Shown here in pieces: positions 20,601 through 26,600 of a stretch of DNA of 64,000 nucleotides (its first letter is position 1; each line of letters starts with the position of its first letter). Origin of the DNA: Abditibacterium sp. (GTDB lineage Bacteria > Armatimonadota > Abditibacteriia > Abditibacteriales > Abditibacteriaceae). Position numbers: made by a program. The DNA lies in the NCBI GenBank assembly GCA_965199495.1, contig CBDASK010000003.1, positions 2,048,001 through 2,112,000 on the forward strand, written 5' to 3'.

Positions 20601-23600
20601 CCGTCGGATTGATCGCTCAAAACGAACTCGCCGCTGGCCTCTCCGGTGCGCCAGACTTCTTGCAAACGCCGCTCGAATTCACTGTCAGTTTCGTGCAAAA
20701 CCTCGCGCATAGTGCGCCCGATGTGTTCGCTAATCGGCTTGCCGTTGATGGCGGCGAGGGCGTTATTGAGCAGAACGTAACGCTCGTTGCGGTCGAACAG
20801 CGCGAATCCGACCGGCGCCGAATCGAGCAACGTGTTCAAAAGCGCCAACGATTCCTGCTGGCGCCGCGCCAAATCGCGCGTTTGATCATCCAAACGTGCG
20901 CGATCCAGTGCTTGCGCGCAACTATTGGCTAACGTCTGCAAAAACAGGCGCGATTCGTCGTCGAAAACGCGCGGCTCGCTCCACGAAAGCGCCATCACGC
21001 TGACGACTTCGCCCTCGGCTTCGAGCGGCAACAGCGCGATGGACTTGGTGCCGGTGGCTGGTAATGTCTTTTCGAGCGACGGAAACCGTTCCGCCCAATC
21101 CCATGCTGTGTCCATCCACAACGGCGCGCGCGAACGATAAACATGGGCAATCGGGTGATCGCTGTTCACTTCAATCGAGGAAAATTTATCCACGGTTCCG
21201 TCTGGGTAACCGCGCGCGCCAATGGTTTCGAGCGTGTGCGGATTGGCGACATCATTGGGTGCCACCAGCACGCCGCCGCGCGCACCGACGGTTTCGGTGA
21301 CGCGCTCAATGGCGATATTGGCTACGTCTTCTGGCGCGCGTGGCCGCAGCAAATCGAACGAAATTCCCAATAAATTTTGCGCGCGTTCGGTCGCGTCGCG
21401 CCCCTGATCCAATAATTGCGCGATGGCGGCATCGGCCTGTTTTTGCGCCGTCAAATCGAACAAAAACATCAGCGTTGCGCCACCTTCGGGCAACTGGATT
21501 TGCGCCATTTCGACGCGCGCCGGAAAAATCGCGCCGTCGGATTTCTGGATGCGACTTTCGTAAATCAAAGGCTCCTGCCCGCCCGCCGCGCGACTGAAAG
21601 CGCGCTCCCTCACGAGGGCGCGCTCCGTGGGCGCCACGAAATCGGTGATGGGCTGACCAATTAAATTCTGGGGATTTTCGTAGCCCAACAGATCGCAGAG
21701 CGCGTGGTTCACGTAAAGCACATGCTGGCCGCGCCCGATGCCAAGCGGAACTGGCGCGGCATCGAACAGCGAGCGAAAACGATTCTCCGATTCTTTAAGT
21801 TCGCGCTCGGCCTCGCGCTCGGTGGTCACATCACGCTGGGTGCCCCACACGCGAACCAGAAAACCGTTTTCTACGATGCCGGTCAGGCTACTCAATAAAA
21901 CGTGTTGCTGTCCGTCGCGATCAACCTCGACCGATTCGGCGTCGCTAACGCGAAAATCTTCGTTGATGAGGCCCATCAAAAAATCGCGCACGCGTTCGTC
22001 GTCGCGATTCATGATCTGCCACAAACGCATGCCGACCATCTGCTGTGCGCGCTCGAAACCATACATTTTGGCGAGCGCGTCGTTGCACTCGGCCAAAATG
22101 CCGTTTTGCCACGCCAACTCCAAAATCTGCGCGCGATTAAGCGACATATCAATCGGCTCGTCCATCTCGAAGCGCCAAATCGCTTCGGACGATTGCTCGA
22201 CGAACGAGCGATAGCGCGTTTCGCCCTGCACCACGCGCGCGCGCGCCTCGCGCCCGGCGATAGCCACGCCCAACACGCCCACGACCGCGCGAATCCATTC
22301 CATCTGCTCGCTCGACCAAACTCGCACGCCATAGTCTTCCGCATCGCCGATTTCCAAAACGCCCCAATAGCGTTCGACCGGCCCAATCGGCGCGCTCAAA
22401 TTGCCGGTAATCTGGCCGCTCGCATCGCCAATGGGAAAGCCGGTTTTAATCGCGCGTTCGGCGGGAGAATTGGTCAAAAAGGGCCGCTTTTCGCCAATTG
22501 CACTGGGCGCATTGGGCGGCGCAACCGCAGCGCGCACGCAAAAGAAATCGCCGGTCGTTTCATCGGTTGAAAAAATGGCTTCGGGCCGTTCCAATTCGAG
22601 AATCGAGGCGTATGGCGCATCGAGCGTTTGCGCGCACAGTTGCGCGGTGCGCTCAAAAAGTGCATCCAAATCGTCAATGCGCGCGAGCGCCAACTGCGAA
22701 AGTTCCGCAAGCGCGCGCTGGCGTTGCGCCTGCGCCGCGAACGCGTCGTTGGCCAGACGCGCGCGCGCCGTCAGCAAAGCCATGAAAAAGCATTCGACTA
22801 AAAAAACGCCGATTTGCACCCAGCCCGCCGAGTTCAAGTGAAAAGAGTGCAACGGCGGCAAAAAATAGTATTCGACTAAAACCGCCGAAATCAGCGCCGA
22901 AACCACGCCGATGCCAAGCCCGCCATTCCAGGTCGCGATCATGATGGCGCCGAAAAACAGCAGAAACGGCGTCAGTTCGCCGATCTGCGTTTCGAGCGCG
23001 ATTTTGGCGCCCCACGCCACCGCGCACAGGGCGAGCGCAAGCAAAAACGACCAAGGGGTTTTGCGAAGGAATGCGAAAGCCGACATGGCAAAAGGGCGCG
23101 GGGAGTTAGGGGACTTGGATTTACGTGGTTCGTAGGCTAAAGCCTACGGCAGATGGCTGCGCCGAACGTGCTTCGCACTTATTTTTAGTGCGAAGCACGT
23201 TCGGCGCAACCATCTGCCGTAGCTTTTAAGCTACGATGAAGGCGTAAGTCCTATAAAGCTTTGGCAAATCGCGTTTCTTCTATTTGGCGACTTGCGTTGT
23301 TTGCTCAAGCGCGCGCTCATTAAAATCTATCGCGCGCTTCGATGCCCAGCATTTTTAGCGCCGCCGCCGCGACAAAGCCTGCCGCTCGCAACAGTTCTAA
23401 TCGCACCGCGCCCGGCACCGACGAAGGCGCCGTGGCTGCTAACAGGTTGCGGGTCGCGCTCGCCATTTCAAGCGCGAAATTCGCCACCAACGCTGGCGCG
23501 CGCCGCGTCGCCGCTTCGTGCGCGGTGTCGGGCCACAGCGCCACCAAACGCGCCAATTCGCGCTCGCCCGCCGACCACTCGACTTCGCTCGCGTCGGTTT

Positions 23601-26600
23601 TGGCGCCAGCGTTTTCTCCGGCGCGTCCCTGCGCCTCGCGCGTCAATCTGGCCAAACGCGATGGCAACAATTGCACGGCATACGCCGGATTGGTTTCGTC
23701 ATCGCGCGCGGCGGTTTCGATGTCCACTTCGGCGGTTTTGCCCGGTTCGGCACGCGCGAAAAACCATTTCAAACGGTCGCCGTCCATTTCCTGCAATTCC
23801 TCGTTCATCAAGATTTCCGAACCGCTCAGCCCCATGCGCAATGGCACGCCGTCGCGCTTGAGTGCCGCGCCGTTCACGATGACGAACTCAAATTTTTCAT
23901 CGGCCACGCCCGCCGCTTTGAGCGCCGCCTGCGTGCGTTTCACATACAATTCGTGCGTCGAATTCCACACGTTGATAATGGCGTCAAAATCGCGTTCGGC
24001 TTTCCACAAATGGTAAGCGATGTCGCCCGCGAAATAGGTCGGCGAGCCGTCGCCACGCTGCAAAACGCGGTCGGCGCTATCGCCGAAATCCGACGTTTTG
24101 AGCCACAACGCGCCCGCGTTTTCGTAGGTTTGGCCGCGACTTTGGAGCAGTTCAATCGCCGCCGCGACGCGCCCATCGTTCATCATCGCGGTTTCCGAAA
24201 CCCAGTCGTCGAAGCGCGTGCCCAAATTTTCCATCGTGGCGCGCTGGCTTTCGATGGCCGACTGCAAAGCCGCCGCGCTGCACGCCGCCAAGCGCTCGGA
24301 CGCGGAAACGTTCAACCACTTCGCGCCATCGCGCCGCGTCAGTTCGGCAGCCACGCCGCGTACGAACGCATTATCGAACGCGCCATCGGGCGCGGGCGCA
24401 TCTTGCCCAAACGCCTTCAGATAATAGTTGGCGACGCCTTCGCCCAGCAAACGATTTTTGCTCGAAGTCGTGGCGTCGTTGAGATAAAACTCGCGCGTGA
24501 CGCGCGCGCCCTGCTCTTCCAAAAGTCGGCAAATCGCTTCGCCGATAACGGCGCGGCGCCCGGCGGCAAACGGCAACGGCCCTGTCGGATCGGACGAAAC
24601 ATATTCGACCAAAATCCGCTTCCCGTTGAGGGCGTCGCCGCTCCCATAATGCGCGCCTTCGCGCGTAGCGCGCTCCAATGACTCGACAATGCTGTGATCG
24701 CTCATAAAAAAATTTAATCGGCCCACAACCAATTCGATGCGCCCATCAAAAGCGGGCTGCAATTGCGTCAATAGAGTTTGGCCGATTTGCCCGGCGCTCT
24801 GCCGCAAAGCGCGCGCCGCTTGCAAAGGCGCGTTGCTGGAAAACTCGCCAAATTTCGCGTCGAGCGGGCGCGATATGGCGAATTCTATCTCGGAAATTTG
24901 CGCTTGAATCAAGCGGCGAATATGAAAGCGAAGCATGGTAAGCAAGCGAAATATCTCTCTTCAAATTTTACCTCGCCTAAATGATATGAAACGAAAAAAG
25001 GGCCGCGTCAGATGACGCGGCCCTTTTTGGATAGACAAACTTTTACTGTTTCTGCACGCGCAACTGCCACAAATCATGCTCGAAACCCTGAATCATGCCT
25101 TGCAACATATTCTCGGTGACCGGATCCAAATCCTGCACGCGATTCATGCGCGCCCGCGTGCGTAGCGCGATAGTATCCAAGCGATCCGAAATCAAATCGA
25201 GCGCTTCGGAATCGCGCACGAAACCGTCGGGAAACGGCGCTAAGCCGGTCGTGCCCGCGACAGTTTCGGGGCGCCCATCCACCGAATATCCCAGCGACAA
25301 AGAACGCTCGGCGATTTGGTCGGCGTATTCGGCGTAGCGGTCGGCGAACATTCCCAATTGCTGGTGAACTGGCAAATAAAGCGGCCCGACCAAATTCCAG
25401 TGCGCCTCTTTGGTTTGCAAACGCAAATCAATCACGTCGGTCAAGGCGCCTTCGAGTTCGGCGGCGACTTTACGGCGCGCATCGGCGTCGAGCGGCACGC
25501 GCTCGGAAATCGGCAAATTGGCGCGTTCGGGATTGTAGGGCAAACCCGGAATCGGGTTGAGTTTGAGCGCATCGAACTTCGTCGGCGCGGTGACGGCGGT
25601 GTTAGTGCCATCGTTTTTGACCGGCTCCTGCGGTGGCGATCCGGGCGTCGTGGCTCCCGAAACCGGGCCGGGTTCGGTGGTGCCGCGCGCGTCTTTGCCC
25701 TTGGGAATTTCGACTTTGGGCGCGGGTTGGAGATTTTTTTCGGTTGGCAAAGGCCGCGAAGTCGGACGGTTCGGGCTGGGCGCGGGCTGAGCCAGCGCGG
25801 GCAAAGCCAACAGTGCGGAAAGAGACAGCGCCGACAAAGCGGCGGCAATGGATTTGTGTGTCATTTTGTTTAGAAAGTTTGGGGTTGTGTCTCTACGATT
25901 TACGCCGCGATCATCCCCAACATTTCGCGGTCGCGGAAACGATGTTTGGCCACGCCTTCGATGAACGATGCAGCCACGTCGAGCGCGTTGCCATCGGGAG
26001 CGAGGAAAACGCCGGGCGCTTCGGCACCATTTTTGGCGAAATCGGTCGCATTAACCAACTGCACGCCCGCGCCCGACGCCGCGATGGCTTTGCCGTGCTT
26101 GAACGCTTCGTCCACGAATTTGCGCGCGTCGCCCATTTTGACTAAAGCCTCGATATTGGTGCTGCCGGGAACGTAAACCGCGTCGAACAAGACCGAACCG
26201 GCGTTGCCGTAGGTTTTCTTCGCCATGAACGTTCCTTCGTCGCCCGCGATTTCGCCCAAGTGCGGGCCGACGACAACGCCCATCGCGCCTTCTTTGGCGA
26301 GCTGTTCCATCATCGCCTCGACGCATTTGGTGAACGAACCTTTGCCGGTCAAAATCGCCACTTTGCGCGCTTTTGCCATCGTCGGCTGACCGTCGGCTTG
26401 TGTCAAACCACTGGTTTTGTGCAAACCGCCCGAAGCCGTCGTTTGCGATTCGGCGTTCGCTAAAACTTCGATTTCTGGGGCGCTATCGGCGGTGCCGCTT
26501 GGCTCGCCTTTGGATTCGGGCATCTCTTCGCCAATCGCCAGACCGATTTGCGCGGCCAATTGATCGTTGATTTTCGCCAGATTCTCCAGCATCCGCGTGC

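Follow-up and report, generated by a model that had tools for sequence, protein, structure and literature searches.

A displaced arginyl-tRNA synthetase kept with its arginine pocket in several Armatimonadota lineages: a possible arginine sensor

Copies of aminoacyl-tRNA synthetases that have left normal tRNA charging are known in several forms. According to the available sections of a review of synthetase paralogs, HisZ derives from a synthetase, does not adenylate, and mediates an amino-acid signal, and LeuRS-I, LeuRS2, SLIMP, and SbzA are full-length or nearly full-length copies lacking normal tRNA charging (PMC9437257). In the same sections, these four retain the ability to adenylate, to bind tRNA, or to transfer aminoacyl groups; none of them is an arginyl-tRNA synthetase (ArgRS), and the term "ArgRS" does not occur (PMC9437257). 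The vertebrate DALRD3 is an ArgRS relative and non-charging; as far as the accessible text goes, it keeps a DALR domain to pick tRNA-Arg for METTL2 and has no recognisable catalytic motif (PMC7237682). NrtL (NCBIfam NF045898) is bacterial and ArgRS-derived; its 327-position model is named for anticodon binding, and a literature search for NrtL with anticodon returned no paper.

Herein, we analysed an ArgRS-like gene of Abditibacterium sp. in a 64-kb window, that is, the whole stretch of DNA examined (Table 1). Its ORF runs on the minus strand from ATG at 24936 to the stop at 23320 and encodes 538 aa, or 541 aa if started at TTG 24945, from which residues are numbered here. The product is the Campylobacter/Bacillus-type ArgRS of Abditibacteriaceae, with all three ArgRS Pfam domains (Add1, Rossmann core, and DALR fold). 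The predicted structure (pLDDT 93.4) has an ArgRS-like fold whose top match is 3fnr (TM 0.76/0.90), and an ESM Atlas search returned ArgRS clusters only. Compared with ordinary enzymes of this type (TIGR00456; PDB 3fnr), domain order, fold, arginine pocket, and chromosomal slot are shared, whereas the TIGR00456 score of 241.8 bits lies below the curated cut-off of 261.65, N123 (E. coli numbering), the KMSKS-loop Arg, and the anticodon residues are missing, and a working foreign ArgRS coexists. With 61.5 bits against a cut-off of 340 on the NrtL model, the protein differs from NrtL in keeping the catalytic core and losing the anticodon residues; the DALRD3 pattern, anticodon side kept and core lost, is likewise the reverse. 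Relatives carry the name "arginine--tRNA ligase" in public records, so the family is probably misannotated. A weak search for fused longer forms found none, and neither Rfam on the window nor a promoter scan gave a match.

Table 1. Positions of the ArgRS-like gene, its altered and retained elements, and related genes
Feature	Position	Strand	Basis
ArgRS-like gene (inherited argS ortholog, predicted non-charging)	23320..24936	-	ORF, Pfam, TIGR00456, fold
N-terminal Add1 (tRNA D-loop/A20) domain, present	24700..24936	-	Pfam, alignment
E114 (= E. coli D118, kept), D119 (= N123, changed), HIGH position (PFAA)	24562..24606	-	alignment
K163	24457..24459	-	alignment
E251, D292, R297 (acceptor-end side) and Y304, D308, K315 (= E. 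coli Y313, D317, R324), all kept	24001..24195	-	alignment
H331 (= E. coli Q341), kept in 27/27	23953..23955	-	alignment
Strand before KMSKS loop, and loop	23821..23874	-	alignment
Replaced YYVQYAHAR helix; new family-invariant RDDE-N-AYA--L-P-RL patch	23653..23706	-	alignment
Anticodon-binding (DALR) domain, fold kept	23323..23583	-	Pfam, fold, alignment
CBS-pair and DUF1385 membrane protein, upstream neighbour of argS in the ancestral arrangement; distance here 21 kb	738..2045	+	synteny
Second (foreign, E. coli-type) ArgRS	genome G000, contig C3:4686188-4687951	-	motifs, TIGR00456 498.8 bits

The survey's finding described this gene as vertically inherited, and our results agree: it belongs to the same slot behind the CBS-DUF1385 gene as intact single copies, and its grouping with the intact same-class copy was not rejected (p-AU 0.135). 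The CBS-DUF1385 gene is an orthology marker of argS rather than a demonstrated partner. A foreign, E. coli-type ArgRS with intact motifs (AKPMHVGH, FKTR, YLEYAYVR) was also verified. It had been counted in 25 of the 26 other family genomes; the actual figure is 26/26, the copy in G014 being frame-broken together with its two flanking genes. Orthologs of the inherited copy were said to be full length in all 26; they were found in all, but the one in G023 is frame-broken and that in G025 is split over contig ends. The IleRS match in G023 also falls in several short open frames, suggesting that its frame break is assembly noise. Both ArgRSs are present in 27/27 family genomes, and the inherited copy is under purifying selection, with dN/dS of 0.07–0.22 (14 family pairs) versus 0.07–0.16 for the working copy (8 pairs). 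Of the other genomes of the class, the only one searched (G176, 89% complete) carries a single, intact copy, in which HIGH, SKR, and YYVQYAHAR are present. The four tRNA-Arg genes of the genome are all canonical (A20 and C35), and a split of isoacceptors or a recoded anticodon was rejected.

The reported motif loss was confirmed, with HIGH reading PFAA, the KMSKS loop RMGLSG, and YxQYAHAR YAVQLLPSR. HIGH loss as a sign of inactivity did not hold, since 22 of the 43 phylum single-copy ArgRSs lack both HIGH histidines, a variation that the survey had noted in some; it therefore proves nothing. Seven of these 22 sit in single-contig genomes and must be active, and such single-copy class I synthetases without His in HIGH bear, as a side result, on ATP activation by enzymes of this kind. 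From the alignment, the telling losses are the KMSKS-loop Arg, N123, the anticodon-reading tyrosines, and the terminal Met. The N123 position is D/E in 27/27 family rows versus N in 43/43 phylum single copies, and N also in 79/79 same-type enzymes from other phyla (control of 80 ordinary ArgRSs found by contig scan). In the KMSKS region of the family rows, Q358 was lost and the invariant Arg deleted in 27/27, with the Lys retained in 4/27. A Lys in the HIGH loop presumably can stand in for the KMSKS-loop Lys/Arg; the inherited copy has neither, its HIGH-loop position being G122. Y423, Y426, H428, H499, F501, Y502, and M541 are each found in 0/27 rows, and we take YxxQYAH, FHxFY, and the terminal Met to be the anticodon-side residues of the yeast ArgRS complex. 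Within the DALR domain, H499, F501, Y502, V507, P538, and M541 are all replaced, and the C-terminal residue is a conserved Phe. In Add1, N78 is kept in 22/27 and F76 in 12/27, with N78 or Q in 27/27. K163 is a gain, Lys/Arg in 27/27 versus Gln in 43/43 single copies, and is largely confined to Abditibacteriaceae. Of 111 positions that are conserved among single copies, the protein keeps 66 (~40% changed, including N119, R374, Y423, Y426, Y502, and M541), while 102 positions, many of them new, are at least 95% identical over 111 family-like clusters.

On several occasions, Armatimonadota acquired a foreign ArgRS in addition to the inherited one. In most genomes with both, the inherited copy lost the KMSKS-loop Lys/Arg, the anticodon residues, and often the A20 pocket or all of Add1, but purifying selection continued to act on it and its arginine side-chain pocket remained intact. 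The family-wide pseudoenzyme of the survey thus stands for Abditibacteriaceae but is not limited to them: the same trajectory was seen in nine lineages, and since it arose in other families and genera, it is a repeated outcome across the phylum and not a family quirk. Degenerate copies share a genome with a foreign ArgRS in 48 of 49 cases, whereas 0/69 single copies are degenerate; Y426 was lost in 9/9 lineages and 0/69 single copies. (The G132 row, which was empty, is excluded from the residue alignment and from the counts of HIGH-less single copies and of strongly degenerate rows, and included in the nine-lineage comparison; the two TIGR00456 matches each of G067 and G083 were counted as pieces of one gene; a weak third match in G042 proved to be a CysRS-like ORF.) The inherited copy is intact in 4/52 two-copy genomes and was not found in 19 genomes of eight families, including all nine of f22 and one single-contig genome. 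Foreign copies of keeper lineages fall on five separate tree branches, and the f18 and f29 degenerate copies are placed among intact relatives. G214/G215 carry a clean in-frame Add1 deletion, with dN/dS of 0.105–0.135 after it, and the copy of G188 from the same genus is intact; among the f13 and f28 copies, several likewise lack Add1 or have a strongly truncated one, and dN/dS was 0.42 in the one f28 pair. These Add1 losses favour a role that does not depend on tRNA. Single genera contain a series of stages, with intact, early-decaying, and fully remodelled copies. The ArgRS tree attracts every degenerate copy into one long-branched group, and the marker tree does not settle the deep nodes; the count of independent events can therefore be bounded but not fixed. 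Net charge by domain gave no clear signal.

The survey's term "dead copy" fits the ATP and tRNA-reading motifs, which are gone, but not the arginine side-chain pocket, which is invariant. E114, Y304, D308, K315, and H331 correspond to D118, Y313, D317, R324, and Q341 of E. coli ArgRS, which, in the available text, contact the arginine side chain or carbonyl (PMC3956977). There, D118A and D317A abolish arginine binding, the Ka is 2.15e4 per M, and tRNA is unnecessary (PMC3956977). All five are kept in 27/27 family rows (K315: 26 K, 1 R) and in 109/109, 111/111, 111/111, 110/111, and 111/111 family-like clusters, respectively, a set that overlaps the genome set. Mean retention over nine lineages was 0.98 for the pocket versus 0.73 for polar invariants (permutation P 0.009, which is overstated because the five residues all lie in the better-kept catalytic domain). 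It was 0.35 for ATP-site and 0.26 for anticodon residues, two figures with some circularity, since the classing of rows as degenerate followed a look at those columns. E251, D292, and R297, which we take to face the tRNA 3′ end, reached 0.96. The N123 position is D/E in 35/40 strongly degenerate phylum rows; since N123 of the E. coli enzyme contacts the main chain of arginine, the ligand may be something other than free L-arginine. Judged by these patterns, the inherited copy has probably ceased to charge tRNA while continuing to bind arginine or a ligand with an arginine head.

The mechanism to which we commit, as the best reading at a probability of roughly 40%, is a HisZ-like arginine sensor carrying on an ancestral side job. 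The ancestral ArgRS would already have held a second job, arginine sensing, beyond the foreign enzyme's ability. Arginine binding, which is tRNA-free and flips Y313 in E. coli ArgRS, would be relayed to a protein partner as HisZ passes the histidine signal to HisG, and the interface may be the new family-invariant surface patches (RDDE..LLPSRL, WPD). The likeness to HisZ concerns this proposed way of working, with amino-acid pocket kept and ATP site apparently lost; HisZ, a HisRS paralog that serves ATP phosphoribosyltransferase as regulatory subunit, is class II, has HisG as known partner, and stems from an ancient duplication, whereas the inherited copy is class I, the displaced ortholog itself, and arose repeatedly. 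The wider idea, that ArgRS doubles as arginine sensor in a phylum without arginine repressor and was pared to the sensor at each takeover, is somewhat more doubtful. ArgR was found in 0/52 phylum genomes (control positive in 8/14) and a T-box search of this genome gave no match; together with ArgB in 56/57 genomes, this speaks for the need of a sensor. ArgB itself keeps an N-terminal helix and a C-terminal ELFT-GxGT in keepers and losers alike, presumably its own arginine-sensing signature, so that there is no obvious need for an outside sensor. The 19 genomes without the inherited copy make the job dispensable, and genomes that lack it likewise lack ArgR.

Neighbourhoods of the inherited copy show ancestral synteny only, with no conserved link to arg genes, and neither synteny nor the fusion search identified a partner or regulated gene. 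Complex prediction with the CBS-DUF1385 protein scored 0.01 against a mark of 0.32, a value that speaks neither for nor against an interaction. Co-loss of that gene with the inherited ArgRS was rejected, as it persists in most genomes that lost the latter (45/51 overall), and so was co-loss with arginine synthesis, given the ArgB count. The genome also holds one ATP_bind_3 gene and one MprF-type gene.

As an alternative, an ATP-independent enzyme binding the Arg-CCA end of Arg-tRNA made by the foreign ArgRS, and transferring arginine to another acceptor or hydrolysing mischarged analogues such as canavanyl-tRNA, seems unlikely. Partial texts offer precedents in SbzA, a transferase using Ile-tRNA (PMC9437257), and CtdA, which hydrolyses canavanyl-tRNA (10.1101/2025.05.04.652006). 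Retention of E251, D292, R297, and Y304 in nearly all lineages fits an aminoacyl-tRNA substrate, the change of N123 to D with the lost fourth HIGH His would suit an ester-linked carboxyl, and in Abditibacteriaceae the invariant K163 was gained near the pocket. Against it, the former ATP site has degenerated along a separate path in every lineage, leaving no common acceptor site to be seen, K163 is for the most part a family feature, and most lineages have deleted or changed the anticodon residues and the A20 pocket, A20 being the main tRNA-Arg determinant in the available text (PMC9976931). No ATE_C-family gene was found in this genome. A complementary distribution with a stand-alone B3/4 (CtdA-like) deacylase was also considered; across 55 genomes, none had more than one match, and every match except one lay in an ORF of PheT size, which makes this comparison uninformative. 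An adaptor for a tRNA-modifying enzyme, like DALRD3, or a SLIMP-like structural subunit appears improbable. Abditibacteriaceae keep the Add1 and DALR folds, N78 or Q, and the terminal Phe, and DALRD3 directs METTL2 to tRNA-Arg (PMC7237682, in part); yet the anticodon residues went first while the amino-acid pocket stayed, and other lineages deleted Add1.

Lineages may instead have gained resistant E. coli-type enzymes and kept the sensitive old one as a sponge for arginine-headed inhibitors, which we regard as quite unlikely. As far as the accessible report tells, the trifolitoxin warhead, which starts with an Arg whose N-terminus is free, binds ArgRS; resistance is provided by the E. coli enzyme, and overexpressed sensitive ArgRS gives about fourfold tolerance, ascribed by its authors to titration (10.64898/2025.12.02.691738). 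Such a decoy would explain both the repeated foreign gains and why only the pocket was kept. The sensitive rhizobial ArgRS is, we assume, of the same type as the inherited copy. However, a sponge is largely redundant beside a resistant enzyme, and a constant need is suggested by 27/27 retention, housekeeping-level dN/dS, and the new invariant patches that lie outside the pocket motifs. Codon adaptation, a weak proxy, ranks in the middle (57th percentile, against the 87th of the working copy). It has a low probability that, despite its unusual motifs, the protein still functions as an ArgRS, constantly or under certain conditions, or as an ATP-dependent ligase after remodelling. The HIGH-less single copies function, non-canonical signature motifs can be active in IleRS2 (available part of PMC10485003), the fold is full length, K163 could replace the lost lysine, and four family rows retain the KMSKS Lys. 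The altered conserved positions listed above and the near-exclusive occurrence beside a foreign ArgRS argue against it, and with all tRNA-Arg genes canonical, no division of labour is needed. Slow decay of a redundant gene is very improbable: long branches, complete loss in the 19 genomes, and the f28 dN/dS would fit, but for Abditibacteriaceae it is already largely refuted by the family dN/dS, universal presence, and newly conserved positions.

The inherited copy would represent, for bacteria, an ArgRS paralog whose amino-acid pocket is intact; the literature searched contained nothing of this kind. Since an essential synthetase gene does not tolerate deletion, its moonlighting is difficult to investigate. 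If the sensor reading holds, the two jobs would here have come apart naturally and repeatedly, so that the gene could be deleted without touching translation, and the nine lineages would amount to nine natural experiments that isolate a moonlighting function not previously described in bacterial ArgRS.

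The ArgRS-like gene of the genome studied (G000) encodes a protein of 538 aa when counted from the ATG; its residues are numbered here from the TTG at window position 24945. Pfam recognised the N-terminal, catalytic and DALR domains, and the score against TIGR00456 was 241.8 bits, below the cut-off of 261.65. The AlphaFold model had a pLDDT of 93.4, and its best structural match was the C. jejuni ArgRS 3fnr. The same genome carries a second ArgRS of the E. coli type with intact motifs and 23% identity to the ArgRS-like protein. The pair was present in 27 of 27 Abditibacteriaceae genomes, confirming the survey's finding that the inherited copy is kept throughout the family. 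ArgRS copies were broken in two of these genomes (G014 and G023), whose assemblies contain further broken genes. More distant degenerate relatives occur in Armatimonadaceae and Capsulimonas.

Features of the window and of related loci
Feature	Position	Strand	Remarks
CBS pair fused to DUF1385 membrane domain	window 738-2045	+	H-AEH and HPRCGTN motifs invariant; associated with argS in 21 families
argC	window 14633-15784	-	7.5 kb from ArgRS-like gene; linkage not conserved in relatives' loci examined
Near-perfect palindrome, 120 bases	window 23121-23241		just 3' of ArgRS-like gene; related copies at ~8 other genome sites; REP/MITE-like
ArgRS-like gene (inherited copy)	window 24936-23320	-	ORF; Pfam, TIGR00456, AlphaFold
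Strong hairpin	window 24995-25029		A and T runs on its flanks; between Dps-like gene and ArgRS-like gene
Protein of 850-940 aa	L144:4742-7339 and 12 other loci		immediately 3' of argS in eight families; signal-peptide-like start; no Pfam or NCBIfam match
T-box-like matches	L367-L374		under Rfam gathering score; four other phylum genomes
tRNA called with TTA (stop) anticodon, and tRNA-Ile(TAT)	G000:C3:4284143-4284216, 4621966-4622040
Two clusters of atypical extra tRNAs	G000:C3:1551680-1552003, 4061305-4061537		mobile elements as a possible source
Two adjacent tRNA-Trp genes	G000:C3:3787750-3787935

The CBS-DUF1385 gene was found at 51 of 85 argS loci, nearly always directly upstream, and preceded intact and degenerate inherited-type argS alike. 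Within the family it was present at 20 of 27 loci, or 21 when G003 is included; in G000, efp and a YtxH gene lie near it, an arrangement shared with relatives. In the literature searched, DUF1385 came up in a single paper. The one other genome of the same class, G176, has a single, intact ArgRS, and the family grouped with it in a tree of RecA, ArgB and DUF1385 (support 80/86). An ArgRS tree constrained to the family plus G176 was not rejected (p-AU 0.135), which does not itself demonstrate the clade, and unconstrained ArgRS trees drew the long degenerate branches together. The conserved slot and the marker tree bear out the proposed vertical inheritance, and the ArgRS-like gene is the inherited ortholog of argS.

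Other arrangements were also seen. At two loci (G051:C39 and G125:C53), a foreign-type argS occupies the inherited slot directly after the DUF1385 gene, a replacement in place. In family f28, the degenerate copy has been relocated beside the foreign argS, directly upstream in G071:C150 (L376) and with one gene between in G095:C149 (L375). In the window, the hairpin is likely a bidirectional terminator, in which case the ArgRS-like gene would have its own promoter there.

Loss of the HIGH motif had been taken as a sign of inactivity, a reading that is not supported, as 22 of 43 single-copy ArgRSs of the phylum also lack any histidine in HIGH. Their variants include SVVN, TVAG, TVGS and AVVQ (for example at loci L147:3061-4827, L189, L118, L143, L144 and L140). 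Seven of the 22 belong to single-contig genomes in which no further ArgRS was found, so these must work without the histidine. Comparable variants occurred among other library matches and in 3 of 79 ArgRSs from other phyla, and passages of PMC10485003 describe altered signature motifs as compatible with activity. The case for an inactive protein, as read from sequence, depends on sites other than HIGH.

As a reference we used positions with 90% identity or more across single-copy phylum ArgRSs, 111 in all, of which the ArgRS-like protein keeps 66. In all 27 family rows, N119 is replaced by D (22) or E (5) and Q163 by K (26) or R (1); equally lost are Y190, Y194, D330, Q358, the KMSKS-loop Arg, Y423, Y426, H428, H499, F501, Y502, V507, P538 and M541. 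Kept throughout are E114, Y304, D308, K/R315 and H331, together with R130, N156, D157, D292, R318, R337 and E251 and R297, the last two of which act at the tRNA 3' end. Among the lost sites, Y423, Y426, H428, H499, F501, Y502 and M541 are on the anticodon side; a lysine of the HIGH loop can serve in place of the KMSKS-loop residue. Invariant patches, among them RDDE-N-AYA--L-P-RL and WPD, are new in the family. By profile alignment, E114, D119, Y304, D308, K315 and H331 correspond to D118, N123, Y313, D317, R324 and Q341 of E. coli ArgRS. According to passages of the E. coli study (PMC3956977), D118, Y313 and D317 bind the guanidinium group, with D118 held by R324, while the main chain of arginine is contacted by N123 and Q341; D118A and D317A abolish arginine binding, for which tRNA is not required. 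By its sequence, the ArgRS-like protein is predicted not to be an active ArgRS.

Of the 122 inherited-type copies from a search of 201 phylum genomes and its follow-ups, 49 were degenerate, 69 were intact and the only copy in their genome, and 4 were intact but accompanied by a foreign ArgRS. Among the degenerate copies, 48 shared their genome with a foreign ArgRS; the one genome in which none was found, G184, is 89% complete. Y426 or the loop Arg was lost in 0 of 69 single copies. Because kin are not independent, the sample size is nine lineages (Abditibacteriaceae, f3, f6, f13, f28, two genera of f18 and two genera of f29) rather than 49 copies, and some neighbouring lineages may share one event. 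Their foreign ArgRSs fell on five separate branches (FastTree). The predicted pseudoenzyme occurs in 27/27 family genomes, and its pattern is not confined to the family. Nineteen genomes, spread over eight families, yielded no inherited copy.

Genus g109 displays steps of degeneration. Both ArgRSs are intact in G188, whereas in G214 and G215 an in-frame deletion has removed the entire Add1 domain (dN/dS 0.105-0.135), Q358E is present, and KR and both tyrosines are lost. Q358E recurs in Abditibacteriaceae (22/27), G214/G215, G234 and G184, and N119D in four lineages. Mean retention over the nine lineages was 0.98 for the arginine side-chain set and 0.96 for the acceptor-side set, versus 0.35 for the ATP set, 0.35 for the A20 pocket and 0.26 for the anticodon set, the latter three being partly circular. 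Compared with random polar invariants, retention of the arginine side-chain set, fixed beforehand from the E. coli paper, gave P 0.009, which is overstated because these sites cluster.

The inherited copy is under selection, with a dN/dS of 0.07-0.22 in 14 family pairs, compared with 0.07-0.16 in 8 pairs for the working enzyme (both Nei-Gojobori). Moreover, across 111 clusters of family-like proteins, 102 positions were at least 95% identical, and many of these are family novelties. The protein is real and selected, its pattern is repeated across the phylum, and we infer its function.

We consider it probable (about 0.8) that the ArgRS-like protein is non-charging and binds an arginine-type ligand. 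Since selection keeps the pocket and drops ATP and tRNA recognition in lineage after lineage, the most economical explanation would be an ancestral ArgRS with a second job requiring the amino-acid pocket alone. The inherited copy may sense arginine and act through a partner, a tentative proposal at somewhat below even odds. ArgR was detected in 0 of 52 phylum genomes (the control in 8 of 14), ArgB in 56 of 57, indicating nearly universal arginine synthesis, and no T-box matched in G000; these results and the gained patches argue for a sensor. Against it, no partner was found, loser genomes manage without the inherited copy, and ArgB apparently keeps the signature of its own arginine site.

Also against the sensor, N123D beside the retained E251 and R297 could mean that the ligand is an arginyl ester or amide, which keeps two rivals alive. 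One is an Arg-tRNA transferase or hydrolase, which we regard as unlikely. Slightly less likely still is a decoy for ArgRS-targeting antibiotics. For this, passages of a preprint on trifolitoxin (10.64898/2025.12.02.691738) report binding of ArgRS by the warhead, whose first residue is Arg, resistance of the E. coli enzyme, and titration of the compound by overexpressed sensitive ArgRS.

Among known systems, HisZ is closest to the sensor in its proposed way of working, yet the ArgRS-like protein fell outside every family tested, including NrtL (61.5 versus a cut-off of 340 bits). Its retention pattern is the reverse of that of DALRD3, as far as passages of PMC7237682 describe it. A full-text literature search, with most subscription journals outside its coverage, returned no description of such a protein, and 'ArgRS' had 0 occurrences in the main text, as far as available, of two synthetase paralog surveys (PMC9437257, PMC5388404). 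The ArgRS-like protein is apparently an undescribed synthetase-derived pseudoenzyme. Whatever the present role of the old copy, resistance to trifolitoxin, as portrayed in parts of 10.64898/2025.12.02.691738, is a possible reason for the repeated gains of a foreign ArgRS.
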